Under the pieces are notes generated by a model that ran no database searches, was not told the DNA's origin, and saw only the letters and a program-made list of their open reading frames with translations. A stretch of 55,924 nt of DNA from a virus (Duplodnaviria > Caudoviricetes). The position numbers were made by a program, and so were the translations under genes. Of this stretch, positions 35,492 to 55,924 are shown one piece after another. Every line of letters begins with the position of its first letter. The first letter of the stretch is position 1. The stretch lies in the IMG/VR virus record IMGVR_UViG_3300037311_000518, positions 1-55,924 of that record; one strand, given 5' to 3'.

Positions 35492-35694
35492 GCAGCGACA
35501 TAGGCGTACTCGACGCGGCCACCATCCCTGACGCGAACTCTGCGCAATTGGCCGCGCTTCCACTCTCGTCTAAGCCTTTGGCTCGCTGCGGCGATATCCA
35601 ATCGCTCCATGTCGGCTAGCTGCCGAGCGGTCACTGGCCTGCCGTGACCGAGTGGGATAGGAGCAATCGGGGTTGTCAGTGCGCGTAGGTTCAT
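35488..35694 (-). CDS. small winged-HTH-like protein
   Basis: VTARQLAD...AASQRLRR...G.LRR; ATGA overlaps. Confidence 0.5.
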   Translation of the reverse strand: MNLRALTTPIAPIPLGHGRPVTARQLADMERLDIAAASQRLRREWKRGQLRRVRVRDGGRVEYAYVAA

Positions 35695-37013
35695 GCGGCA
35701 TACCTCGATTCGTAAGCCAGGTTTTCAAATCTCATCGTCGGGCCAAGCCATGCGGTCTTAATCATTCCTAAGGGACCGTGCCGATTCTTCTCGATGTTGA
35801 TTTCGGCTATCCCTCGCTCATGGCTGTTTTCGTTGTAGACCTCATCGCGGTACAACATTGCGATGAAATCGGCCTCACGTGTAAGCTCGTCTGAGTTAGC
35901 CAGATCGCCAGCCAAAGGTCGTTTGTCGGCTCGTGTTTCTACTTCGCGCTTGACCTGTGCCAGTGCGATTACCGGAATGTCTAGATCACGTGCCAGGTCT
36001 TTCAGAGTTCGTGCGACCTCAGCGACTTCCTCGTCCCGCTTCTGAGCTTTGCGATAACGGATGCGCTGAACGTAATCGACATACAGGGCCTGTAAACCGT
36101 GCATCGATTTCCACTTGCGGGCGATTCGGCAAACCTCATCTAGGGTCGGAGCAGAACGATCGTAGATATAGAACTTCCGATCCCTCAGGCTGGTTAACGC
36201 ACTGGTCAGTCGTGTCCAGTGCTCAGGCTCCAGCTTCCCGTTGCGGAGGGCTTCGCCTGGGACATTTCCTGTTCTAGCGATTAGACGCTGCGCGAGCTGC
36301 ATCCTTGGTTGCTCGCCAGATATCACGCCGACGACTTTGCCTTCATGGCTTGCATGCTCGGCGAATCCGAACAACAGAGCGGTCTTGCCCATTGATGGAC
36401 GTGCTCCGAAAATCATCAGGTCGCCGTCGTGGCAACCGCCAGTCCGGTCATCCAGCTTCGTGATACCCGTCGGTATCCCGCGAAGTTTTCCGCCTGCCTC
36501 GCATGCCTCATTGATCTCGGCCAAAGCTTCGCGCAATGCAGCATTGAGATCGGATTCATGGTTCGTCGACGTCTTCGACAAGTCCATCAAATCGCGAACG
36601 GCGGAATCGGTCAGGGCTACTGCATCGGAGTCGTCGAACGCCTGACTGGCGATCCTGGTACCGATGTCGATCAGGTTTCTCAGGACCGCTTTATCGCGGA
36701 CGATCTTCGCGTACGCCTCGATGTTTGCCGCCGATGGTGTCGTGTTCGCGATTTCGATGACGTACGCAATACCGCCAACCTGATTAGCACCACCGTTGGA
36801 CTGAAACCACTCGGCCAGAGTGACCGCATCCCTAGGTTGCTGACGATCGGCCAACGAAGCAATTGCACGAAAGATCAGCCGATGGTCATGCCGGTAAAAG
36901 TCAGACTCGGAGAGCTTGCCAGCGATGCGATCCCATGCGCGCTCCGACAGCATCAGGCCGCCAAGCACCGCCTGCTCGGCCTCAATCGAGTTCGGCGGAA
37001 TTCGAATGTTCAC
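35691..37013 (-). CDS. dnaB: replicative DNA helicase (DnaB family)
   Basis: PPNSIEAEQAVLGG, GARPSMGKT, VDYVQ, AQVKR and IEKNRHGP motifs. Confidence 0.95.
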   Translation of the reverse strand: MNIRIPPNSIEAEQAVLGGLMLSERAWDRIAGKLSESDFYRHDHRLIFRAIASLADRQQPRDAVTLAEWFQSNGGANQVGGIAYVIEIANTTPSAANIEAYAKIVRDKAVLRNLIDIGTRIASQAFDDSDAVALTDSAVRDLMDLSKTSTNHESDLNAALREALAEINEACEAGGKLRGIPTGITKLDDRTGGCHDGDLMIFGARPSMGKTALLFGFAEHASHEGKVVGVISGEQPRMQLAQRLIARTGNVPGEALRNGKLEPEHWTRLTSALTSLRDRKFYIYDRSAPTLDEVCRIARKWKSMHGLQALYVDYVQRIRYRKAQKRDEEVAEVARTLKDLARDLDIPVIALAQVKREVETRADKRPLAGDLANSDELTREADFIAMLYRDEVYNENSHERGIAEINIEKNRHGPLGMIKTAWLGPTMRFENLAYESRYAA

Positions 37014-37690
37014 CATTCCTCCCGCTTCGTTCGGGGTGAGACCGCCCCTTTGGGCAGGACGTTGCCCATGACCCATTCCGCCTTGAATCCAGTCCATCCC
37101 CGCTCACAGCAGGCCTTGAGTGCGTCTTCGAAAGACCAGCCAGCCTTTTCCGCTTCCCGCCGTATTCCCCGAACGGCAGTCTCGGTGATTGGGGCCTTTT
37201 TGGCTTTCCGAAGCGCCTTGAAGTCATTGACGACCAAAGGGTCGATTCCGTCGAACAAGTCAGGCGCGGATGCGCCTTTATCGTCTACGCATACGAATAC
37301 GTCTAAGTGTTCATTTGCTATCGTTTGATCAGCATCTGCTATGCATGTGCTAAGCAGTTGATCGTCGGTTGATGGAAACTTGCTTTTCTTTGCTCGCGCC
37401 TGCTGTCTAAAATCCAGCATTTCAAGGTAACGCTCCCCGTCCGATGCCGGGTACACCCTTACAAGACCCGCGTCTGCACAAGCGTGCAGCCACTTGCCTA
37501 CGTCCGAGTCGGAAACCTTGCTTAGCTGTCTTGGATAACACGCCGCCCGCAGCATCCCAGGATCAGCGTAATAACGGCCGAAGTCGTCCACTACCGACAT
37601 CAATCGACGATAGAAGACCTCATCCGCCCATCCCAATTTCGAAATGCGAGAACTTGTGAGAATCCCCTCTCGCAGAATCCTATTTGGCAT
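37010..37690 (-). CDS. phage replication initiator protein
   Basis: MPNRILREGILTS..., DDFGR, C-terminal DF..LRKAKKAP.T...RGW.GF; upstream of the helicase. Confidence 0.8.
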   Translation of the reverse strand: MPNRILREGILTSSRISKLGWADEVFYRRLMSVVDDFGRYYADPGMLRAACYPRQLSKVSDSDVGKWLHACADAGLVRVYPASDGERYLEMLDFRQQARAKKSKFPSTDDQLLSTCIADADQTIANEHLDVFVCVDDKGASAPDLFDGIDPLVVNDFKALRKAKKAPITETAVRGIRREAEKAGWSFEDALKACCERGWTGFKAEWVMGNVLPKGAVSPRTKREEW

Positions 37691-45446: not shown

Positions 45447-46373
45447 ATGAACGCCGTATTAGCCGAACAAACCGATACCGTCGATCAGCCCAAGAAACAG
45501 CTTCGGCCGTATCAGGACGCGATCAGCAAGGCCAAGGATCGATTCGCCAAGGTCGCCGGCGATGGCTTGGACTATGACAAGGAGTCGATCTTCGCAGCGC
45601 AGGCGCTGATGAAAACAGACTATGCGATGCAGGTCGCGAACAAGAACCCGAGCAGCGTGCATCTGGCGATGATCAACGTCGCGAGCACGGGCCTGACGCT
45701 GAACCCTGCGAACGCCTACGCCTACCTGGTCCCTCGCGACGGCGCCATTGTTCTGGATATCAGCTACAAGGGCCTGATAAAGATCGCTACCGACTGCGGC
45801 GCAGTCCTGTGGGCTCGCGCTGACGTGGTGCACGAGAACGACGGGTTCACCTACCGCGGCCCGGCCGCCATGCCGGATCACACAGCCGACGCCTTCCGGG
45901 ATCGTGGAGAGATTATCGGATGCTACGCCATCGCAAAGACAGTAGACGGCGACATTCTGACCGAGATCATGGACCGCGCCGAGATCGAGAAGATCAGGGG
46001 CAAGTCTGACCTGTACGCCAAGCGCAAGTCTGGCCCGTGGGTCGAATGGTTCCAGCAGATGGTCAAGAAGGCCGTGATCAAGCGCGCTTCAAAGACCTGG
46101 CCGTACACAGACCGCATGTCTCGCCTGATGGAAGCCATCGAGCTGGCGAACGAAGGCGAAGGCGGCTACACGCTGGATGCGCCGGCCGTCGAGCTTGTTA
46201 GTGAAGCTCAGATCGCGACGATCAAGGAATGGATCGAATCTACCGAGTCCGATGAGGCCAAGTTCTGCAAGGCGATGGGCGTCGAAACTGTCGAGGCGCT
46301 GCCTGCTGCGAAGTACGCGGCGGCAATAACGCTGTTCCAAGAAAAGTCGGACAAGCTGGCGGCGCAGAAGTGA
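45447..46373 (+). CDS. recT: RecT-family single-strand annealing recombinase
   Basis: GLTLNP...AYLVPR, ISYKGLI and PW..WF.QM.KK.VIKRA.K.WP motifs. Confidence 0.92.
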   Translation: MNAVLAEQTDTVDQPKKQLRPYQDAISKAKDRFAKVAGDGLDYDKESIFAAQALMKTDYAMQVANKNPSSVHLAMINVASTGLTLNPANAYAYLVPRDGAIVLDISYKGLIKIATDCGAVLWARADVVHENDGFTYRGPAAMPDHTADAFRDRGEIIGCYAIAKTVDGDILTEIMDRAEIEKIRGKSDLYAKRKSGPWVEWFQQMVKKAVIKRASKTWPYTDRMSRLMEAIELANEGEGGYTLDAPAVELVSEAQIATIKEWIESTESDEAKFCKAMGVETVEALPAAKYAAAITLFQEKSDKLAAQK

Positions 46374-46981
46374 TCGTTCTCGATTGCGTACAAGGATCGC
46401 CCGAGTGGGTAGCTGCCCGTCGCGGCATCCCGACCGCGAGCGAGTTCGGGCGGATTATCACACCAAAAACCGGGAAGCTGGCCGCGGCGTCCGAAGCGTA
46501 CATAGCTGAGCTGATCGACGAGTTGGTGCGGCCTGACGCCGAGCGCGGTTTCAGCGGAAACCGGCACACCGAACGCGGCAAGGCGTTAGAGCCGGAGGCG
46601 CGCGACTGGTATGCTTTTTCGGCTGACGGAGACGTGCGACAAGTCGGTTTGTGCCTGACGGACGATCGGATGGCCGGGTGCAGCCCCGATGCGCTCGTGG
46701 GTGAAGACGGCGGATGTGAGATCAAGTCGCCCGACGGTCCCGCGCATGTCCGCTACCTGCTGGCTGGCGTGTTGCCGGACGAGTACAAAGCGCAGGTCCA
46801 CGGCTGTATGTGGGTTACTGGCCGGGCGCAGTGGCATTTCGTGTCGTGGTGTCCGCCATACCGGCCGCTGCTTGTGCGCGTCGATCGTGACGGCTACACG
46901 GATCTGCTGGGGCAGGCCGTTGGTGAGTTCTGCGCCGAGCTGGCCCGTGCGCGCGACCAGATTCTGGGGGCAGCCGCGTGA
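46370..46981 (+). CDS. YqaJ/lambda-type exonuclease
   Basis: QGSPEW..AR.G.PTASEF, RG..LEP.AR, CSPDAL, EIKSP and QVHG.MWVT motifs. Confidence 0.92.
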   Translation: MIVLDCVQGSPEWVAARRGIPTASEFGRIITPKTGKLAAASEAYIAELIDELVRPDAERGFSGNRHTERGKALEPEARDWYAFSADGDVRQVGLCLTDDRMAGCSPDALVGEDGGCEIKSPDGPAHVRYLLAGVLPDEYKAQVHGCMWVTGRAQWHFVSWCPPYRPLLVRVDRDGYTDLLGQAVGEFCAELARARDQILGAAA

Positions 46982-47430
46982 GCCAGTCCATCGTCAATAG
47001 CCAGGAAACGCTGTCGCGCCTGCTTGGAGACATCCGGGAGGCATGGCAGCGGCACAAGTACCTGCGCGTGACAATCAAGACCGGAAAGGATCGCTCGCTC
47101 GATCAGAACGCAATATCGCACGTTTGGTACGAGCAGGTCGCGAACGAATTGCGCGAGGATGATGCGCTCGGTGTCAAACGGTTTTGCAAGCTGCACTTCG
47201 GCGTTCCGATTCTCCGAGCCGAGGATGCCGCATTCCGCGAGTTCTACGACGCCGGCCTCAAAGGCCTGACGTACGAACAAAAGATCAAGGCGATGGACTA
47301 CCTGCCCGTCACTTCGCTGATGACGACAACGCAGCTATCGGCCTACTGCGTGGAAATGCAGGATCATTTTCGGGCGCGAGGCGTAACGCTGGAATTCCCT
47401 GAGGCTGATAAGCCAAGGAAGGCGGCATGA
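46978..47430 (+). CDS. NinB-like recombination accessory protein
   Basis: RSLDQNA..H.W and TS.MT..Q.S.Y motifs. Confidence 0.7.
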   Translation: MSQSIVNSQETLSRLLGDIREAWQRHKYLRVTIKTGKDRSLDQNAISHVWYEQVANELREDDALGVKRFCKLHFGVPILRAEDAAFREFYDAGLKGLTYEQKIKAMDYLPVTSLMTTTQLSAYCVEMQDHFRARGVTLEFPEADKPRKAA

Positions 47431-47723
47431 GGTCGAAAAACTCCAAGCCGCTTACCCGCGCAGAGTCCGAGCATGTCGCCCTGGTCAAGTCCGTCGGCTG
47501 CGTGGTCTGCAACAGCGGGCCGCCGAACGAGGCGCATCACATCGAACAGGGCCTGCACTTCGCCACGGTTGCCCTCTGCCCCGACTGCCATCGCGGCAGT
47601 TTCAACGGCTGGCACGGCCAGAAGCGAATGTGGCTGATACGGAAATGGAACGAAATCGACGCACTGAACGAGACAATCAGGCGCGTTAATGGAATGCAGG
47701 ATAACGAGAGGAAAGCAGCATGA
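47427..47723 (+). CDS. Ref-like/HNH-type zinc nuclease
   Basis: GCVVC, EAHH and LCPDCH.G..GWH motifs. Confidence 0.65.
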   Translation: MRSKNSKPLTRAESEHVALVKSVGCVVCNSGPPNEAHHIEQGLHFATVALCPDCHRGSFNGWHGQKRMWLIRKWNEIDALNETIRRVNGMQDNERKAA

Positions 47724-48127
47724 GCAGCTACAACCACGTCACATTAATGGGCCGACTCGGCGGCGATCCAGATCTTCGGTACTCGCCTGACGGAACCGCG
47801 TTCGCAACCCTGAGTGTCGCCACGTCCGAAAATTACAAGGACAAACAGGGCAACAAGCAGGAACGGACCGACTGGAATCGAGTGAAGTTGAGCGGCCGAG
47901 TCGCGGAGATTGCTGGCGAGTACCTAAAGAAAGGGGATCTTGCGCTTTTTGAAGGAAAGCTGCGCACCGACAAATACCAAACCAAGGATGGCAAGGACGC
48001 GTACGACACACATGTCCGATGCTTTGGTATGCAGTTGATTGGCGGTAAACGCGATGGCCAGAAAGCGGAGCGACCGCAAGAGCAGCAGGCGGCGGCCGAT
48101 GACTTCGACGACTCAATCCCATTTTGA
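47720..48127 (+). CDS. ssb: single-stranded DNA-binding protein
   Basis: N.VTLMGRLG.DP, ATSE, EGKLRT and C-terminal DFDDSIPF. Confidence 0.95.
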   Translation: MSSYNHVTLMGRLGGDPDLRYSPDGTAFATLSVATSENYKDKQGNKQERTDWNRVKLSGRVAEIAGEYLKKGDLALFEGKLRTDKYQTKDGKDAYDTHVRCFGMQLIGGKRDGQKAERPQEQQAAADDFDDSIPF

Positions 48128-48318
48128 TGCCGTCCGCGCGAGCGCTGGAGGAATGATGAATAACTGCGTCACCTGCGTCTACTTCGACGGCAACCGCGAC
48201 GCCGGCAGAATGGAGCCTGGTCGCTGCCTGAGCCTCGACAGCATGCGCGGCGGTCACATCGTGCGGGCGTACGAGCGGTGTGCGAATCACTATGCGGCTG
48301 AGCTGGAGGCCCGCGACG

Positions 48319-49005
48319 ATGGCTGATGGCGCGCAATTGGGTTCGGGCATTCGTCGTCTGAGGGTGCTCGTCGCCTGCGAATTCAGCGGCACGGTTCGTG
48401 ACGCCTTCATCAGTGTTGGGCATGACGCGATGAGCTGCGACCTGCTGCCAACCGAGAGGCCGGGACCGCACTACCACGGTGATGTGCGTGACATCATCTG
48501 GGATGCATGGGATCTGCTGATCGCGCATCCGCCCTGCACGTACCTATCTAGCTCAGGACTGCACTGGAACACAAGGGGCAGAACCGTCGATGGCCGACCT
48601 CGTGCGCACCTGACAGACGAAGCCGTCGAATTCGCCCGACTGTTCATCGAAACCGCGTCGCACATACCCATGCGCGCCGTCGAGAATCCGATCGGTTGCC
48701 TGTCAACCCGCATTCGCGAACCCGATCAGATCATCCAGCCGTGGCAATACGGCGAGGACGCCAGCAAAGCGACGTGCCTATGGTTGAGCGGTCTGCCATC
48801 CCTTAAGCCAAGGGCGTTCCATCCGCCGCGACTGGTCGTCCACAAAGACAAGTGGGCCATGCGATGGTCGAATCAAACCGACTCCGGGCAAAACACGCTT
48901 GGACCATCAGACGATCGATGGGCTGAACGCAGTAAAACGTACGTCGGCATCGCCGAAGCCATGGCGAGCCAGTGGGGTCAACTCCCGGCCCGGGAGGCGG
49001 CGTGA
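48319..49005 (+). CDS. phage DNA cytosine methyltransferase-like protein
   Basis: RVLVACEFSG.VRDAF, DLLIAHPPCTYL (PC), VENP, K.TCLWL and RSKTY.GIA.AMA.QW motifs. Confidence 0.8.
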   Translation: MADGAQLGSGIRRLRVLVACEFSGTVRDAFISVGHDAMSCDLLPTERPGPHYHGDVRDIIWDAWDLLIAHPPCTYLSSSGLHWNTRGRTVDGRPRAHLTDEAVEFARLFIETASHIPMRAVENPIGCLSTRIREPDQIIQPWQYGEDASKATCLWLSGLPSLKPRAFHPPRLVVHKDKWAMRWSNQTDSGQNTLGPSDDRWAERSKTYVGIAEAMASQWGQLPAREAA

Positions 49006-49023
49006 TGGATGCTCGGAGCGAAA

Positions 49024-49398
49024 CTACGCCATCTTGTCTCTTTCGTGTCGGCAGTTCTGGCACACGAAATCATCAAGCTGGTAGGCGGTCACCAGAGACT
49101 GGTCATCGATGTATCCGCCATGCGCGCAGCTGCTCACAGAGTCATCGCCGGATACGAGTCCTACTGGACCTTCGCACGGAACCCGGTAGATCAGCGGTCG
49201 GATCGCCGCTCGATAAACGCGATCCTGAGCGGGCGTCAATGCCTCAACACCGACATTCGGATCGAGTAACAACCGCGCGATGCCTGACACGTTTTCCCAT
49301 AAATGGCCGCTGTCTACTGCGGAGCGCTCTAGAACTTCCGGCTGCTCGTCGTAGAGATAGCGCAGCGCAGCGCGATTTACGGACGACTCTTTCGACAT
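49024..49398 (-). CDS. hypothetical Cys-containing protein (counter-oriented moron)
   Basis: Strong SD GGGAGG; C..C..CQNC. Confidence 0.6.
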   Translation of the reverse strand: MSKESSVNRAALRYLYDEQPEVLERSAVDSGHLWENVSGIARLLLDPNVGVEALTPAQDRVYRAAIRPLIYRVPCEGPVGLVSGDDSVSSCAHGGYIDDQSLVTAYQLDDFVCQNCRHERDKMA

Positions 49399-49498
49399 GG
49401 CTCACCCTCCCTCTCTGGTGTCGCGAAATCATGATCCTTAGCGGACTGCTTCGCAACAACCCTGCAAACGCACCCCTACTCACCCAGGACATCGCAGC

Positions 49499-49924
49499 AT
49501 GAGCGACATTGTTTCCCGCGCACGAGAACTTGCGCATCGCGCTCACGACGGGCAGGTGGACAAAGCCGGCCGTCCGTACATCGAGCACGTTTCGCGTGTT
49601 GCTGCGGCGGTGGCGGGTGATCCGGAAGCTGAGGTCGTCGCTTGGCTTCATGACGTCGTCGAAGATCATCCGGAGTATTCCGACGAAGTGTTTTCGTTCC
49701 CGCCGCTGATTGCCCGAGCCATAGATCGGATAACCCGGAAGACAGTGCATCCTGAGACATATTTCGCGTGCATCCGGCTCGACCCGATCGCCCTGCGCGT
49801 CAAGCTCGCCGACATCGCGGACAACGTAGATGAGTCGCGCCTGGCACTACTTGATCCTAAGACCGCTGATCGTTTACGCAAAAAATATGCGCATGCGCTG
49901 AAGGCGCTAGGAGTCAAACCATGA
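49499..49924 (+). CDS. HD-domain hydrolase, RelA/SpoT (small alarmone hydrolase)-like
   Basis: AH.GQ.DKAG.PYI.H, WLHDVVED and VKLADI.DN motifs. Confidence 0.85.
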   Translation: MSDIVSRARELAHRAHDGQVDKAGRPYIEHVSRVAAAVAGDPEAEVVAWLHDVVEDHPEYSDEVFSFPPLIARAIDRITRKTVHPETYFACIRLDPIALRVKLADIADNVDESRLALLDPKTADRLRKKYAHALKALGVKP

Positions 49925-50184
49925 GCAAGCCAACCAACCCGTACACCCGTTTGCTCGAATCGTTCCGAGAATACGTTCACAAGGTTACCTATCGGCACCG
50001 AAAGACGATGTGGGTTTACCCAAAGGGCAGGCTCAATGGCAGCTGGAATCTGACTAGTCTATCGGAGCGCGTTGCCGCTGCCGATCAGCTCGGATACGAC
50101 GTGCAGCTTGTCAACACGGACGACGGGCTGGGTGTCGTCTACGTGAAACGTGTGCCTGAAGCGCCGTACGAGGTTCTCCCATGA
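49921..50184 (+). CDS. hypothetical protein
   Basis: ATGA coupling. Confidence 0.55.
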   Translation: MSKPTNPYTRLLESFREYVHKVTYRHRKTMWVYPKGRLNGSWNLTSLSERVAAADQLGYDVQLVNTDDGLGVVYVKRVPEAPYEVLP

Positions 50185-50723
50185 CCACGCTCACCGAGGC
50201 GCTGAGTGCTTGCGCCGCCAATTTCCGGGAGATCGGCAAAGGCGTTATCGATAAGCAGCGAGTGATCTATGACTACTGCGCTGACCAGATCGACGCGCTG
50301 AATGCCGAACACGGATCCACCATGCTGGCATTGCTGCGGGAGCGGTCTGCGTCGCTTGCCCCTATCGAGTGCGACGAGGCAATGGATCGCACGTACATCC
50401 CGCTCCCTGCCGAATGGGAAGTTCAGACGCGAGGCAAAGGTTCCACGTTCCGCATCGCGCGAACCGATGGCTATGGTGATCGGTTCGCGATCACGGAAGA
50501 ACGCGTCCATGCTGAGCTGGAGCAGATGGCACGCGATATCCACGCGAGATACACAGCATTGCTGCGGGAGCGTGATGAACTACGACGGCTTGTTGATGAG
50601 CTGGCGACGGACTTGGAGAACGAAATAGAAAACCGACGATCTGGCGAGCTTCCACGCCGCATTGAGCGTGACCTGATTATCGTTCGAGAAGCTCGCGCTT
50701 TTCTCACCGGAATCACGCCATGA
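50181..50723 (+). CDS. hypothetical protein
   Basis: ATGA coupling; coiled-coil C-terminus. Confidence 0.55.
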   Translation: MTTLTEALSACAANFREIGKGVIDKQRVIYDYCADQIDALNAEHGSTMLALLRERSASLAPIECDEAMDRTYIPLPAEWEVQTRGKGSTFRIARTDGYGDRFAITEERVHAELEQMARDIHARYTALLRERDELRRLVDELATDLENEIENRRSGELPRRIERDLIIVREARAFLTGITP

Positions 50724-51142
50724 CTACGCTCGAACAGCGAGCGCGAGAACTTGACGCAATGGTGCCGAGCGCCGAACAACTTCGACTCAGCATGGGCGAA
50801 TTGTCGGCCGAAGAAGTACGAATCGCGAAAGCCGCGTATCGGCTGGCGCTCGTACAACATTTTAAGCCATGCGCCGTAGACATGGTGGCAGATGCAGAAA
50901 CGAAACGTGTTGATCAGCTGACCGAGGAAGTGAAGGCGCTCAGGCGGGATGCTGAAAGGTATCGGTGGATCGAAAAGCATGTAACTGAGCTACCCACGAA
51001 AAATTCCATGCGAGGCGAATTTGCAGAACAAAAAACACAGTGGGTTCTACCAACGCTGATTTCATGGGCGGATTTCTGCGGGCCGATCCCGTTTGCTGTC
51101 GCCATCGAGAACGCCATCGCGAACGAACGGGGCGGAACGTGA
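50720..51142 (+). CDS. hypothetical protein (Ead/Eaa-like DAERYRW motif)
   Basis: LRRDAERYRWI. Confidence 0.55.
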   Translation: MTTLEQRARELDAMVPSAEQLRLSMGELSAEEVRIAKAAYRLALVQHFKPCAVDMVADAETKRVDQLTEEVKALRRDAERYRWIEKHVTELPTKNSMRGEFAEQKTQWVLPTLISWADFCGPIPFAVAIENAIANERGGT

Positions 51143-51330
51143 AGACTTCCAAGATTGTCCGCGCGAAGGCTCTGTTGCTTGAAGTTCAGGCCAACGGCCA
51201 CGTGCCAATGATCGAAAAGAACTGGTTGGTGTTTAGACCACCGTTGCCTTTAGATCAACTTATGGAAGCGAGCGAGTTATCGAACGAATTGGTGTCTCTA
51301 CTTGAGAACGAACGAAAGGAGCAAGGGTGA
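51139..51330 (+). CDS. hypothetical protein
   Basis: GTGA coupling. Confidence 0.45.
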   Translation: MKTSKIVRAKALLLEVQANGHVPMIEKNWLVFRPPLPLDQLMEASELSNELVSLLENERKEQG

Positions 51331-51560
51331 AATCTATGGCACTCATTAGTGACAGAACCGAAGGATGGCGGCTCAACCGGATCAATGTCGGTCCGCCGTA
51401 CCACGTCGAGCTGGTTGGTCCATACAAACTAACGCAGGTGGAAGATGCACGCGGAAATGGCGCTTTATCTGGGACAGATGGCGCGGTTTTCTGCGCTACC
51501 CCTGAACTGGCGGTCCGGCTTTGCGAAATGGCAAACGCTGGAATTCTGGATCGTATCTAA
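51327..51560 (+). CDS. hypothetical protein
   Basis: SD AGGAG; TAA stop lies in the attC R' box. Confidence 0.5.
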   Translation: MKSMALISDRTEGWRLNRINVGPPYHVELVGPYKLTQVEDARGNGALSGTDGAVFCATPELAVRLCEMANAGILDRI

Positions 51561-51614
51561 CGTCCGAAATAAGCCGCGTTGCGAAGCAAAGTCGGCTTGA
51601 ATGAATAGTTATGC
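51555..51614 (-). other. attC: integron attC site (60 bp)
   Basis: Minus strand: R'' GCATAAC-TATTC-L'' ATTCAAGC-CGACTTTGCTTCGCAACGCG-L' GCTTATT-TCGGAC-R' GTTAGAT. Confidence 0.88.
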
Positions 51615-51634
51615 CTCATAGCGACGAGACGAGC

Positions 51635-52309
51635 ATGCGAAAAGCAGTGATTGGCAACGCAACCTTGTACTTGGGTGACTGCCGGGACATTCTCCCGACG
51701 TTGCCTCCCGCAGATGCGGTAATAACTGATCCGCCATACGGGATCACATACCAGTCAAACGCTGGCGTTGGTGCGGGGACGCGGCCAATTTCCAACGATG
51801 GCACCCGCGTTTCCCTGCGTCTTTACAAAGCAGTGATACCGCTTTTGCATGGAGCGCCGACGCTCTGGTGTACCCGATGGGACGCTTGGCCCGACGTGTG
51901 GGAGCTGTTCGCAGCGTCGATGAAGGTAAACGGCCTGCTTGTCTGGGATAAGGGTCAGCCCGGAATGGGTGACCTGAAACACTGGGGGCCATCCTATGAG
52001 CTGATCGCATCTTGCGGACCGGTGCGCACGCGTGGATCGCGAGATTGCAGCGTGCTGCGCTACAACACCGTCCCGTCGCAAAACCGAAACCATCCGACAG
52101 AAAAGCCGGAGGCGCTTTTCCGCTACTTGGTGCAGAAAGTGACCGATGAGGGCGACGTGGTTCTTGACCCATTCATGGGAAGCGGTACTACCGGCGTGGC
52201 GGCAGTGAGTGAAGGCCGAAAGTTCATTGGCTGCGAAGTTGACCAATCCTACTTCGACATTGCATGCCGCCGCGTCGAGGATGCGCAACGGCAGGCGGCA
52301 ATGTTTTGA
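51635..52309 (+). CDS. DNA amino-methyltransferase (N6A/N4C, beta class) on a gene cassette
   Basis: LYLGDC, TDPPYG, HPTEKP and VLDPFMGSGTTG motifs. Confidence 0.92.
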   Translation: MRKAVIGNATLYLGDCRDILPTLPPADAVITDPPYGITYQSNAGVGAGTRPISNDGTRVSLRLYKAVIPLLHGAPTLWCTRWDAWPDVWELFAASMKVNGLLVWDKGQPGMGDLKHWGPSYELIASCGPVRTRGSRDCSVLRYNTVPSQNRNHPTEKPEALFRYLVQKVTDEGDVVLDPFMGSGTTGVAAVSEGRKFIGCEVDQSYFDIACRRVEDAQRQAAMF

Positions 52310-52313
52310 TGAG

Positions 52314-52369
52314 GCATAACGTCTGAGTTAACGCGCGCCGAAGGCGTCGCGTTGAACGAAATGTTAGGC
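52314..52369 (-). other. attC: integron attC site (56 bp)
   Basis: Minus strand: R'' GCCTAAC-ATTTC-L'' GTTCAACG-CGACGCCTTCGGCGCG-L' CGTTAAC-TCAGAC-R' GTTATGC. Confidence 0.88.
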
Positions 52370-52410
52370 CAGGCAGCAACAACGCGCTGTGTAGCGCAGG
52401 AAGGTGAACG

Positions 52411-52614
52411 ATGGACGACAAAAACGACTACACGCTTTATTGGCGCGACGGGAAGCATGAAAGCGTGCGCGGGCGTGACATTGCCGACGCAATGAATAGA
52501 GCCGGCTACGGTGGCGGAGCCGTGGCCGCTCTTGACTTCTTTGGGCACGGCAAGACGCCGGCCTATTACTGGAATGCTGACCGCGCAGAGTGGGAAGCTC
52601 TGCCCAACCCGTAA
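52411..52614 (+). CDS. hypothetical protein on a gene cassette
   Basis: SD GAAGG; TLYWRDGK...G.DIADAM..AGYGGGAV.ALDF. Confidence 0.65.
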   Translation: MDDKNDYTLYWRDGKHESVRGRDIADAMNRAGYGGGAVAALDFFGHGKTPAYYWNADRAEWEALPNP

Positions 52615-52616
52615 GG

Positions 52617-52634
52617 GCCTAACTAGTGTTATGC
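52617..52634 (-). other. attI-like/secondary integration site or truncated attC at the head of the cassette array
   Basis: Minus strand GCATAAC-ACTA-GTTAGGC; GTTAGGC complements R'' of attC 52314-52369. Confidence 0.55.
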
Positions 52635-52671
52635 CGCAACGATGCAGCCACATATCCAGGAGGTAGATTGC

Positions 52672-52983
52672 ATGACCATCAAACAACCCAAGCCGCTGTC
52701 GGAGCGACTGTCGGGTTTGCTCATACATAGGGACGAGTACGGATATGCAGATTCGATAGACATCTGGGACACGGTGTTCCTGCATTTGAATGTAGGAACG
52801 TGCCGAAACGAAGAAAATGTTGATGCACTTATACAACTGCTCCGCGAAGCCTCCGAACTTGCGCGGAGGGTGGAAGGTGCACCGAAAGTCAAGGTTCGAG
52901 GGAAGATCGGCGAGGTATGCACAGTGCCCGTATCGCACGACTACTGCGGCAAGCGCGTCGCGCTGGTGGAGGTGGGGGAGTGA
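52672..52983 (+). CDS. hypothetical protein
   Basis: SD GGAGG upstream. Confidence 0.5.
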   Translation: MTIKQPKPLSERLSGLLIHRDEYGYADSIDIWDTVFLHLNVGTCRNEENVDALIQLLREASELARRVEGAPKVKVRGKIGEVCTVPVSHDYCGKRVALVEVGE

Positions 52984-53158
52984 GAATGATGCGAATAGAC
53001 CTGCCCGAAGGTAGGGTGTCGATGACGTGGCCTGACGACCTGTCGGTCGAATCAGCCGAAACGATGGCGCAGCTATTAGAGCTGCAAGTGCGTGGTGTGC
53101 TGCGTTGGGCGAAGCTGCCGGCGCGGGCCGCACAATCCGTAACAGACGAGGTAACGCC

Positions 53159-53392
53159 ATGACCCGCCCCAGCGACCAGGCGATTGCGCTCAAGCCGTGT
53201 CCGTTTTGTGGCGGTGAAGCGCACGTTGCCCAGCCGACCCTGCTAGGTGGCTACATGATCCATTGCGATACGCCATCGTGTCAGGCGCAGTGTCGCCTGT
53301 CCGGTGATTTCGCGAAGGCCGCCGCCGCATGGAACCGCCGAGCCCGCGAGCTGGATGGCGATGTCAATGATGTGGGTGGGTTATGTCCGTAA
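53159..53392 (+). CDS. Lar-family restriction alleviation protein
   Basis: LKPCPFCGGEA...C...C...AAAAWNRRA. Confidence 0.8.
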   Translation: MTRPSDQAIALKPCPFCGGEAHVAQPTLLGGYMIHCDTPSCQAQCRLSGDFAKAAAAWNRRARELDGDVNDVGGLCP

Positions 53393-53580
53393 CTGAACTC
53401 GACAGCTACCGCCCGCATGTCACGCTCCGCACGCCGGACGGCAACGTGCACGTCATCCCCGTCGCGACGTTCGACCGCATCATCGCCGGCGAAATCTCCG
53501 TGCGCGACATCGACGACTGCGATCTGATCGTCCGTGCAGTGTTCTCGGATTGGTTGCTGGATTTGAGGGAGCGTGCGTGA
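53383..53580 (+). CDS. hypothetical protein
   Basis: Coupled ORF. Confidence 0.5.
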   Translation: MSVTELDSYRPHVTLRTPDGNVHVIPVATFDRIIAGEISVRDIDDCDLIVRAVFSDWLLDLRERA

Positions 53581-53885
53581 TGTCGATAGTCCACATCCAC
53601 GCGCCGAAGGCCACAGCAAAACGCGTGATCGCCGGCCACTGCCCCGACTGCAAGAAGCGATCCCGGTTCCTAGTGTTCCACACACCGTGGTACGGCAACA
53701 ATCAGACCTGTCTGCGCTGCGGCCGCGAATGGGCGGATGGCGAATGGATGCGTTTCCCGTTTGTGCGTGGCGCACGGGAAGCTAGCATCGCAACAGCAAA
53801 GATGCGCTGGCGGCGAATGCCGCCCGTCTCCGAGAATCACTTCGGCATCGAGCCCACCACCGACCACGGCGGGGAGAGGGACTAA
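53580..53885 (+). CDS. zinc-finger hypothetical protein
   Basis: CPDC...WYG...TCLRCG..W.DGE. Confidence 0.55.
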   Translation: MSIVHIHAPKATAKRVIAGHCPDCKKRSRFLVFHTPWYGNNQTCLRCGREWADGEWMRFPFVRGAREASIATAKMRWRRMPPVSENHFGIEPTTDHGGERD

Positions 53886-53887
53886 AC

Positions 53888-54136
53888 ATGGCCACAAAAG
53901 ACATCACCGATTTGCAGGTTTGCCAAGCCGTCCGGGCTGGCATGGATCATCCCGGTCCGTACGATGGCAACCATCACCGCCACGTGATCTTAGCGGCCAT
54001 GACCGGCGAGCATCTGAAAGTGTGCTGGCGCGCATTGGAGCGCGCGCAAACACGCGACTTGATCGACTGCGGCGTCGGCTTGCATGTCGCGTACCTGACT
54101 GATGCAGGAAAGGCTTTACTTGGAGATGATGCATGA
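53888..54136 (+). CDS. hypothetical winged-helix-like protein
   Basis: SD GAGG; KDITD..VC...KVCWRA.ER...LTDAG. Confidence 0.55.
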   Translation: MATKDITDLQVCQAVRAGMDHPGPYDGNHHRHVILAAMTGEHLKVCWRALERAQTRDLIDCGVGLHVAYLTDAGKALLGDDA

Positions 54137-54289
54137 CGAAGTTCAATTCCATCCTTTGCGTGATCGGGATGGCATTGTCGGCCTCCGCGGTCATGATCTT
54201 TCTAGACCCGACCCCAATCATTCAAGGCGGCCTCATCGCTGTCGTGGTCATGCTGTCGGTCTATCTGGGACTGACGGCGAGGAGCTGAC

Positions 54290-54484
54290 ATGACCGTCAC
54301 CGAACTACGCGACGCACTGAACGCGTTGATTGAGCAGGGGCATGGGGATCTAATCGTCGCCATGGCATACCCGGTTTATGCCTTCACAGATCGAGAAGAC
54401 GACGAGATCAGCGAATTGAGGATCGTCGACGAGCCGGTGCGGGCATACCGGCCCATGGCGACGCCGTACGTGCGGATTATTTGA
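54290..54484 (+). CDS. hypothetical protein
   Basis: MTVTELRDAL..GHGD; SD GAGGAG. Confidence 0.5.
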   Translation: MTVTELRDALNALIEQGHGDLIVAMAYPVYAFTDREDDEISELRIVDEPVRAYRPMATPYVRII

Positions 54485-54509
54485 TCGAGTTGAACTACCC
54501 ATCCCAGCA

Positions 54510-54758
54510 ATGAACCCCGCCCTCGTACAAGAACCCGAATTGGCCGCCGTCACCGGATACTACACACCGGCCGGTGATCCTGACCGCGGGCAGATCAAAC
54601 GCTGCCTCAAGCGGATGGGTGTACGCTATTTTGAGGGCAAGGGAGGCCGGGTGTGGACGACGACGGACCTGATCAACAGGGCGGGCGGACTGGTGTCCGG
54701 CCAGCCGGCAGCGAACGACGACGACGCGATGGCGCCGTACGGTCCAGAATTCCTGTGA
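54510..54758 (+). CDS. putative excisionase (DUF4224-like)
   Basis: ELAAVTGY...RCL..MGVRYF.G.GG.VWTT.D.IN; directly upstream of the integrase. Confidence 0.65.
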   Translation: MNPALVQEPELAAVTGYYTPAGDPDRGQIKRCLKRMGVRYFEGKGGRVWTTTDLINRAGGLVSGQPAANDDDAMAPYGPEFL

Positions 54759-55924
54759 AGCGCACCGGCCCGAAGCGTCTGATCGATCCGACGATCCCGC
54801 GACACATCGATCAGTCGCAGATTCCGACTGGCGTGTATTGGGATCGCCGCCGATCGCGCTGGTATCAGCTCTACAAGAAGGACGACGGAGCACGCGGACG
54901 CCGGGACGGTCCTGACGCAACCGCGCGCATAGCCGATCTGCACGCATTCGCCGAAAAATTTGTGGACGATGAAGCCGGCACGATTCGTGCCGTGATGAAG
55001 TTGTTCCATGCGAGCGCGAAGTTCAGGGGTCTGGCGCAAGCGACGCGCAAGGGTTACGAGCAGTGCCGGCAGTGGATCATCGTGGAGACGACGGCCGACG
55101 GCGGATCGCTCGCCGATGCGACGATCGACCGGCTCACGCGCCAGCACATCCAGCGACGCATCGACAAGATTTCCGAGGCCACGCCATCGAAAGCGAATGC
55201 AATTCTTCGCTATCTGCGCCGGACACTACGCTGGGGCCAGAATCGCGGACACTGTCGGACGAACCCGGCCGAAGGCGTGGAACTTGCCGAGGAAAAGAAG
55301 AAGGCATCGATGCCGGAAAGCGATGCCGTGTTCATCGCCACCCTGACATTCGCCCAAGCCTGCGCGCGACTACCGGCGCACACCGAGGGCAGCGTACCGG
55401 CGTACCTGCCGCTCGTGATGGAACTGGCGTACCTGTGCCGCCTGCGCGGCGTCGAAGCGCTCGATCTTACCCTGGCCAGCGCCTGCGCGGACGGGTTGAC
55501 TGTCTCGCGAAGGAAGGGCTCGCGCTCGAACCTAGTCGAATGGAACCCGAGGCTGCGGGCGGTTTGGGATTCGGCCCTTGCCGAACGCGCGCGCACCCTG
55601 GCGCGAAAACAGGCACAGGGCGTGGTCGTACCGATCGAGATCGACCCGGGAAAGCGGCGAGTCTTCCTGGCAGAAAGTGGCGCGCCGCTCACGCGCAGCG
55701 GCCTTTCAAGCGCATGGCAGCGTTTCATGGCGATCGCCACAGATCCGGTGAAAGGCTGCATCACGCCAGAGCAACGATTCACATTGCACGGCGTCAAGCA
55801 CCGCGGGATCACGGATACGCCGGGCACGCGCGCCGAGAAACAAGACGCGGCCGGGCACGTCGACCCGCGGATGACCGAGCGCTACGATCACTCCGTCCCG
55901 CGCGTGAAACCGGCTCGGGAATGA
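54755..55924 (+). CDS. int: tyrosine recombinase (phage integrase)
   Basis: LCRLRGVE (R), RRKGS (K), FTLHGVKHRG (variant HxxR), AGH and RY catalytic motifs; no recognisable IntI-specific insertion. Confidence 0.92.
   Translation: MKRTGPKRLIDPTIPRHIDQSQIPTGVYWDRRRSRWYQLYKKDDGARGRRDGPDATARIADLHAFAEKFVDDEAGTIRAVMKLFHASAKFRGLAQATRKGYEQCRQWIIVETTADGGSLADATIDRLTRQHIQRRIDKISEATPSKANAILRYLRRTLRWGQNRGHCRTNPAEGVELAEEKKKASMPESDAVFIATLTFAQACARLPAHTEGSVPAYLPLVMELAYLCRLRGVEALDLTLASACADGLTVSRRKGSRSNLVEWNPRLRAVWDSALAERARTLARKQAQGVVVPIEIDPGKRRVFLAESGAPLTRSGLSSAWQRFMAIATDPVKGCITPEQRFTLHGVKHRGITDTPGTRAEKQDAAGHVDPRMTERYDHSVPRVKPARE

Follow-up and report, generated by a model that had tools for sequence, protein, structure and literature searches.

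A phage-borne pair of integron cassettes with genes on the attC bottom strand, probably from a phage-associated population of mirrored handedness

Results and Discussion

A mirrored cassette array without an integrase

The window analyzed here, by which we mean the whole stretch of DNA, is a 55,924-base provirus record of IMG/VR (IMGVR_UViG_3300037311_000518). Positions 51561-52622 of it most plausibly hold a two-cassette integron array without an integrase (a cluster of attC sites lacking integron integrases, CALIN) that belongs to a widespread phage-associated population of cassettes of mirrored handedness; we put the probability of this reading at about three in four. Integron cassettes are promoterless and are inserted so that the integron promoter, Pc, reads them, and the strand selectivity of the integron integrase, IntI, is explained as serving this rule. 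In such cassettes, the promoterless gene reads toward its attC along the attC top strand, whereas both genes of this array lie on the bottom strand. Along the mRNA sense, the order is attC and then gene, and each cassette closes at the next AA|C crossover point. Clusters of attC sites in phages are already known, and the mirror orientation is the new part.

attC sites and their recombinogenic strand

We located attC sites with R1, a covariance model of our own that is distinct from the one in IntegronFinder. It was built from 17 canonical top-strand attC sequences: 16 short sites from intI-adjacent arrays and the aadA1 attC of R100, for which the annotation (intI1, aadA1, qacEdelta1) makes the gene strand known. 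Over the whole window with filters off, R1 found exactly two sites, with the next matches at E 4 and 6.2. S1, the attC of a methylase cassette (51555..51614, top strand on minus), scored 48.4 bits over its full length (E 4.6e-10), and S2, the attC of a cassette with an open reading frame (ORF) of 67 aa (52314..52369, top strand on minus), scored 56.7 bits (E 2.9e-12). Read on plus, which is the bottom strand, S1 has R' ATCTAAC at 51555-51561 and R'' GTTATGC at 51608-51614, and S2 has R' GCATAAC at 52314-52320 and R'' GTTAGGC at 52363-52369. The RYYYAAC...GTTRRRY boxes with their conserved AAC and GTT are present in both sites, which align to model positions 1-60 and also carry the other structural hallmarks of attC, namely L boxes, an unpaired central spacer, and extrahelical bases on one arm.

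The strand of these sites can be read from their folds. Along its coding strand, the aadA1 attC carries extra bases on the 5' arm, so the 3' arm of its folded bottom strand has one T and one G bulged out. The plus-strand folds of S1 and S2 have this same bottom-strand pattern, with a lone T and a lone G bulging from the 3' arm at a spacing of 7 nt, and the S2 fold reaches −16.5 kcal/mol (z −2.85). Both plus-strand loops are GAA, which one study gives as the consensus loop of the attC bottom strand (Nivina 2016).

Natural arrays served as a control on this strand rule. Among 181 top-strand hairpin candidates from 20 IntI-adjacent stretches of Xanthomonadales type, each oriented by its intI, single-base bulges were confined to the 5' arm in 89 and to the 3' arm in 18, while 30 candidates had them on both arms and 44 had none. 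Most of the bases bulged out were A and C. These counts of pure single-base bulges replaced a measure based on total unpaired bases, which was dropped because branched loops confounded it (110 vs 62 in the wrong direction). R1 itself, run on 21 IntI-adjacent arrays, placed 179 of 183 matches on the strand expected from intI, and the remaining four were weak echoes of strong ones.

Had the strand been called wrongly, plus would be the top strand, the cassettes would be of the normal gene-then-attC kind with an upstream 77-aa ORF as the third, and S3, the junction at the far end of the array, would be a truncated attC. The symmetry of the boxes leaves room for such an error, as RYYYAAC...GTTRRRY is identical on both strands and terminal inverted repeats are neutral with respect to orientation. 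This explanation is nevertheless barely credible: the plus strand of S1 and S2 gave no R1 match at E ≤ 10, the bulges and loop match a bottom strand, and the attC that is conserved between methylase copies lies 5' of the gene. The first-pass annotation had placed both attC top strands on minus and both ORFs on plus, with the caveat that folding might reveal the opposite strand as the recombinogenic one. R1, the GAA loops, the match of the plus-strand folds to the aadA1 bottom strand, and the protein evidence for the two ORFs (PF01555 and homologues of the 67-aa protein) all uphold its call. S1 and S2 are attC sites with the top strand on minus.

Cassette genes and crossover points

Cassette B (51561..52319) runs from the C of the S1 AA|C to the A before the C of the S2 AA|C. 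It carries an N6/N4 (beta-class) DNA methyltransferase of 224 aa on plus (51635..52309), which matches phrog_67 (E 3.9e-57) and PF01555 (E 2e-26; 93.7 bits against a gathering cut-off of 26.7) and has DPPY and FxGxG motifs in its translation. The start at 51635 aligns with those of two copies, one from a viral contig (L001) and one from a Dokdonella prophage (L031), and the ATG at 51611, inside R'', seems the less likely start. Cassette A (52320..52622), bounded by the S2 AA|C and the AA|C at 52621-52623, carries a conserved 67-aa protein on plus (52411..52614), preceded by the Shine-Dalgarno-like GGAAGGTG. Six homologues were found among 5.8 billion proteins, with 54-91% identity and 27 invariant columns. 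Searches of Pfam, PHROG, and NCBIfam gave no match for it, and its protein atlas scores of 0.81-0.82 are at chance level. In both cassettes, merely 20-40 nt separate the attC from the start codon. True cassette genes on minus, the other caveat attached to the initial strand call, did not emerge from Pfam: the five minus-strand ORFs within the cassettes had no match at E ≤ 0.01.

The limits of the array follow the crossover points. The three plus-strand stops (TAA 51558-51560, TGA 52307-52309, and TAA 52612-52614) lie inside or 4-5 nt ahead of the heptamers ATCTAAC, GCATAAC, and GCCTAAC, as had been described from the first look at the DNA, and the limits then proposed, 51561-52622, turn out to be exactly the two outer AA|C crossover points. 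Within them, two attC sites 700 nt apart without an intI constitute a CALIN. A perfect 12-nt inverted repeat (51608-51619 / 52309-52320) pairs the S1 R'' with sequence at the S2 R', as expected of one cassette's own attC, and in cassette A an 8-nt inverted repeat pairs GTTAGGCC (52363) with GGCCTAAC (52616).

Comparison of copies delimits the methylase cassette at the same points. Against L030, a contig of a metagenome-assembled genome (MAG) with a 97%-identical methylase, the window shows 94.4% identity between R'' and AA|C and 33-37% in the flanks, and L001 and L031 share 92.3% inside the cassette and 30-36% outside it. The attC on the 5' side is also conserved (67% between L001 and L031 and 59% between the window and L001, with flanks at about 30-37%). 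The conserved attC sits 5' of the gene at each of four loci, and the attC sites on the 3' side show no relation from copy to copy, which identifies the 5' attC as the methylase's own. The methylase cassette alone (~51591-52320, 90-96% identity) was recovered in four runs from three studies of wastewater and activated sludge, with contigs that end or diverge at 52320; two of the runs are DNA and two are RNA libraries, and the RNA contigs were not used as evidence of transcription. Judged from these alignments, the methylase cassette is a mobility unit bounded by crossover points and seen in differing contexts.

Some of these copies show further features. Just before ~51591, two metagenome records (record 1 of run X10 and record 9 of run X5) have an attC lower stem that matches S1, but their upper stem and loop depart from it on either arm in what looks like a compensatory change. 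Another contig of run X5 (record 10, 144 nt) touches both 51591-51611 and 52315-52340 and could be another attC of the family. In L030, the ORFs downstream of the methylase resembled, by eye only, a small toxin-antitoxin pair.

At its far end, the array meets the phage at junction S3 (52615..52635), where inverted R-box-like heptamers lie 4 nt apart with no L stem. A correction to the first-pass annotation concerns the site at 52617-52635, the third in the series: R1 has no match there, and the site is the junction with the phage target rather than an attC. Joining 51560 to 52623 retains the stop of the upstream ORF and leaves a small inverted R-box-like pair around G|TT on minus, and G|TT is found at both outer junctions of the array. 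S3 and 51555-51560 appear to reconstruct a G|TT secondary (attG-like) target on minus, which fits the GWT motif; GWT is the attG consensus for secondary-site insertion in the Loot preprint (10.1101/2022.09.11.507474). S3 itself may have arisen by collapse of an attC, or it may be a small target of the palindromic core type.

Orientation of cassette genes in viral and bacterial arrays

The arrangement in the window recurs elsewhere. Ten loci were found through homologues of the methylase, and with the methylase set on plus, 46 of their 47 attC matches fell on minus, the exception being a weak echo; the opposite orientation of gene and flanking attC first noted in the window is shared by these homologues.

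For a sample that is blind to cargo, IMG/VR was scanned with a strand-specific attC pattern in degenerate nucleotide (IUPAC) code, which on previously found loci had matched the expected strand only. The first scan returned at least 120 stretches, of which 80 were listed, and R1 found 156 sites (149 non-identical) in 67 of those. Coding bases per strand within 700 nt of each site were then counted with a self-trained codon-usage gene caller, and a site was scored as inverted if at least 80% of them lay on the attC bottom strand. Among the matches listed, 112 of 149 sites were inverted, 14 were sense, 15 were mixed, and 8 had little coding sequence. A replicate drawn from a complete sub-pattern scan (114 stretches; 58 new loci, 65 sites) gave 50 inverted, 9 sense, 3 mixed, and 3 with little coding sequence, its inverted loci spanning 38 to 67% G+C. 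IntI-adjacent bacterial arrays, scored by the same script as a control (n = 144), gave 2 inverted, 123 sense, 14 mixed, and 5 with little coding sequence. The viral and bacterial orientations differ with Fisher P = 1.9e-52, and the viral-contig attC sites have a strong, replicated excess of bottom-strand genes.

We also scored the longest ORF of each cassette, a measure that performed well in bacterial arrays and gave ambiguous results in GC-rich viral loci. Bacterial arrays gave 91 sense, 5 inverted, 21 ambiguous, and 15 without a clear ORF (6 were skipped for size), and GC-rich viral loci gave 13 inverted, 4 sense, 14 ambiguous, and 2 without an ORF; each of the four intervals called sense in viral loci contains multiple small ORFs on plus. 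A further ORF census based on codon-position G+C content (GC3 > GC1 > GC2) was dropped, as it was noisy in bacterial arrays (107 on the same strand vs 83 on the opposite one).

The surroundings of the inverted loci are those of phages. In ten of them, the largest neighbors included a serine integrase, helicases, a tail fibre, a portal, RecE-like exonucleases, and a ribonucleotide reductase, and 4 of the 10 largest in-array bottom-strand ORFs were DNA methylases by Pfam. GenBank phages held merely two records with resemblance to canonical Xanthomonadales-type attC, both of which carry class 1 integron DNA. From the initial proposal of a class of phage-adapted cassettes expressed from the phage promoter PL, the part that stands is that the cassettes are phage-associated and hold bottom-strand genes co-oriented with the operon (112/149 and 50/65 vs 2/144, with phage neighbors). 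As for its promoter, gene order and strand are what would point to transcription from a PL-like one.

In two of the loci, an ORF beside the methylase (L001:3950-4507 and L024:2457-2945) resembles phage Dam (PF05869) with scores, 25.5 and 20.9 bits, that fall short of the cut-off of 28.1, which suggests arrays with several different methylases. Pfam searches of nine neighboring ORFs in L001 and nine in L024 gave just these sub-threshold matches and IntI domains in one L024 ORF.

Integron integrases in phages and hosts

The integrase encoded in the window is a phage integrase (phrog_1) that reaches 22 bits with a XerC model, and the combination of intI, attI, and Pc that makes up a complete integron is not present. 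IntI was found in 1 of 48 inverted-majority viral records and in none of the 8 with a completeness of 90% or more, so most such records are integrase-less clusters. Co-transcription with a phage IntI was considered as a general cause of the orientation and was rejected on this count of 1/48.

At three viral loci (L024/G154, L014, and L174/G205), IntI lies downstream of the inverted cassette genes and is co-oriented with them. L024 belongs to a 54.9-kb phage, G154 (L217-L219), which is complete according to CheckV and encodes terminase, protease, capsid, tail, RecT, and its own phage integrase. In G154, at least nine attC sites lie in a single operon, running across the contig ends, of RecT, cassette genes, IntI (L219:9125-10222, minus; TIGR02249, 412.7 bits), and, with IntI directly upstream of it, the phage integrase (L219:7645-9009, minus). 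The top strand of its array points away from intI, as in any integron, and all of its cassette genes face intI. Among the six sense-majority loci of the first viral sample, three had IntI adjoining the array and looked like ordinary integrons.

These data bear on whether the hairpins are integrase substrates at all. They could instead be phage regulatory or terminator elements that resemble attC, the genes being ordinary morons; they do sit between co-oriented genes, where a terminator or processing site would be expected, and IntI is absent from 47 of the 48 records above. We regard this as very improbable, since R1, trained on IntI-adjacent sites only, gives 48-57 bits, the R boxes, spacers, bulge spacing, and GAA loop are all present, copies lose their homology to one another at the AA|C cleavage point, and some such phages have a true IntI beside the array. 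Inspection of the sequence also found no T-run after the stems of S1 and S2.

On the host side, the Dokdonella MAG whose related prophage is L031 has a true IntI (462 bits against a cut-off of 265). Next to it are a junction that resembles attI and an aadA1-like attC that follows an ORF on plus. In the order of this MAG, IntI exceeds the cut-off in 87 of 151 genomes. One of the three cassettes of the Dokdonella integron is inverted, the second (L056:6271-7005); its start codon lies inside its attC, and it encodes a phage-type DNA methyltransferase (phrog_24333, E 1.7e-16) with no match in Pfam or NCBIfam. It exemplifies the situation that the first-pass annotation had foreseen for a host integron, a phage-type cassette lying antisense to Pc.

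The same integron matters for a further explanation, that the window simply received ordinary inverted bacterial cassettes which chanced into a prophage, like the promoter-bearing toxin-antitoxin exceptions, so that no phage-specific class exists. Bacterial arrays do hold inverted cassettes (2 of 144 sites, or 5 of 132 by longest ORF), and Nivina 2016 states that promoter-facing cassettes are absent from sequenced integrons save for a few promoter-bearing exceptions. We find this account improbable. The inverted share is ~88% on viral contigs vs ~2% in bacterial arrays, the 20-40 nt between attC and start codon in the window leave a promoter little space, and the one inverted host-integron cassette that was inspected (L056) itself encodes a phage-type methyltransferase.

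The prophage operon and the direction of replication

The window is a real temperate tailed prophage. Its minus strand encodes, by PHROG and Pfam, tape measure, portal, major head, TerL, a DnaB-type helicase, and an exonuclease. On plus, a co-oriented operon (45447..55924; PHROG, Pfam) contains RecT, an exonuclease, a methylase, an HD protein, the cassettes, a Lar-like gene, and the phage integrase gene (54653-55924), which is ended by the window edge. Directly flanking the array are a 77-aa phage ORF upstream (51327..51560, plus), with its TAA stop inside the R' of S1 and no match in family searches of Pfam and PHROG, and a 103-aa phage ORF downstream (52672..52983, plus), which has an AGGAGG ribosome-binding site. 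Single-protein scans of the viral contig set gave no relatives of the 67-aa, 77-aa, or 103-aa proteins, and among GenBank phages no DNA resembled window 50700-53400.

Two other genes of the operon have related functions: a second DNA methyltransferase (48280-49005, plus; phrog_757, E 1.6e-57; no Pfam match) and a Lar-like restriction-alleviation protein (53105-53392, plus; PF14354, E 2.2e-10), neither of which is flanked by attC. Together with the cassette methylase, they make this an operon with three anti-restriction-type genes, just one of them in the form of a cassette.

The layout of the prophage also allows a replication-based account, in which the mirror orientation is a by-product: attC would fold only when its bottom strand is on the lagging-strand template, arrays would grow in that orientation only, and genes co-oriented with the fork would end up on the bottom strand. 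The replication gene DnaB (35691-37097, minus) and the RecT-to-integrase operon (plus) diverge from ~38-43 kb of the window, and a fork leaving that region, a position suggested by the divergence of the genes, would use plus as the lagging-strand template. In the integron literature, including work by Richard from 2024, orientation relative to replication is reportedly linked with excision rate. Against this, the Loot preprint reports no leading/lagging bias for secondary-site insertion in E. coli (10.1101/2022.09.11.507474). We consider the replication account possible, though on the unlikely side; for the window, it is compatible with the reading we favor, from which it departs on the reason for the existence of the class.

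Proposed mechanism

The favored reading, an array from a mirrored phage-associated population, suggests the following course of events. The array would have been inserted, or assembled, at a secondary G|TT site that separates two phage genes in what appears to be the early operon, running from recombination and anti-restriction genes to the integrase, of a temperate tailed prophage. As the cassettes have no room for a promoter and run in the direction of RecT, Lar, and int, their expression most likely depends on transcription that starts at the phage early promoter and reads through them. They were probably moved in trans by a host IntI, a gene that is frequent in the likely host order, or in some related phages by an IntI borne on the phage. 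The methylase, to judge from its family, most likely shields phage DNA from host restriction. Once inside a bacterial integron, a mirrored cassette would lie antisense to Pc.

Three candidate reasons for the handedness may be offered. The cassettes may need to be co-transcribed with the phage operon; the orientation may be locked in by a shared phage pool, because exchange between attC sites preserves array polarity; or the orientation may serve to place the recombinogenic strand on the lagging-strand template of the replicating phage. In a broader form of this proposal, to which we give even odds, a phage pool of opposite-handed, methylase-rich cassettes spans hosts of 38-67% G+C and is moved by host or phage IntI, with handedness insulating the pools from each other. 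Phage cassettes would then be silent in bacterial integrons, and bacterial cassettes silent in phage arrays.

Several observations weigh against the favored reading. Orientation is not universal, as 23 of 214 viral sites are sense. The isolated Tetrasphaera phage TJE1 (L220) is also sense, its three experimentally validated attC sites at 242-293, 1016-1075, and 1462-1519 lying on the strand of the annotated genes, including a methyltransferase, so both handednesses occur in phages. The census covers one attC sub-type, set by the search pattern, on contigs predicted as viral by IMG/VR; its sites are not phylogenetically independent, and the gene caller mis-called two loci (L008 and L026) whose methylase strand is known. 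With respect to integrases, TIGR02249 (IntI) finds nothing in the 55.9-kb record. As to expression, the RNA-library contigs show no strand and cannot exclude DNA carry-over.

The insertion itself also raises difficulties. The R''-like heptamer of S3 matches the first bases of cassette B, 4 nt from the crossover, which simple secondary-site insertion leaves unexplained. Neither GenBank phages, nor viral contigs, nor a metagenome scan with the 103-aa protein yielded a close relative in which the site is empty; the metagenome scan gave two distant loci, L300 and L301, without attC nearby, and in L300 homologues of two flanking genes lie ~300 nt apart with no attC. Finally, L030 has no recognizable attC stem (no R1 match), though its R'' and AA|C end are kept (L030:1-90, 760-1500); this may reflect decay after capture.

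If the favored reading is true, integron recombination also serves the exchange of accessory (anti-restriction) genes among phages, and handedness becomes a simple sequence marker that separates phage-derived from bacterial cassettes. It would further give a concrete reason for the inverted, silent cassettes seen in chromosomal arrays. The loci bear on the origin of cassettes and on how orientation relative to replication and transcription tunes cassette mobility.

Comparison with known systems

The nearest precedent is a survey which reports 17 CALINs with methylase cargo in 10,705 isolate phage genomes and recombination of phage attC sites with attI1 under IntI1 (Qi 2023, PMC9892861). Like the window, these CALINs place attC sites and cassettes in phage genomes, with N6_N4_Mtase cargo and inverted GTTRRRY boundary motifs. 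Unlike it, they are not reported there as having bottom-strand genes as a rule, and TJE1 and PH101 are described as being in the typical orientation; the supplementary tables of the survey may hold further orientations. In a full-text search of the literature, whose scope did not extend to those supplements, bottom-strand genes were not described as the usual state in phages.

The presumed mode of entry resembles attG insertion as set out in the Loot preprint: both use a short G|WT outside attI and attC, in a double-stranded target cut near the center of a small inverted repeat, and the inserted cassettes there depend on local promoters. That work concerns laboratory cassettes in the E. coli chromosome, whereas the window holds a tandem pair with mirrored genes in a natural prophage.

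With chromosomal and mobile integrons (class 1, Xanthomonadales), the array shares the attC architecture and the AA|C crossover, and S2 spans the full model consensus. It departs from them in gene strand, as 123 of their 144 sites scored sense with top-strand genes, and in its setting: their genes are driven by a Pc next to intI, and the window is without intI, attI, and Pc.

Phage orphan DNA methyltransferases are reportedly the subject of work by Murphy from 2013. Like these genes and other morons, the methylase of the window is a stand-alone enzyme in an early operon among anti-restriction genes (Lar and a second methylase). Morons of this kind are free-standing, whereas the gene in the window forms part of a site-specific recombination cassette whose ends are defined.

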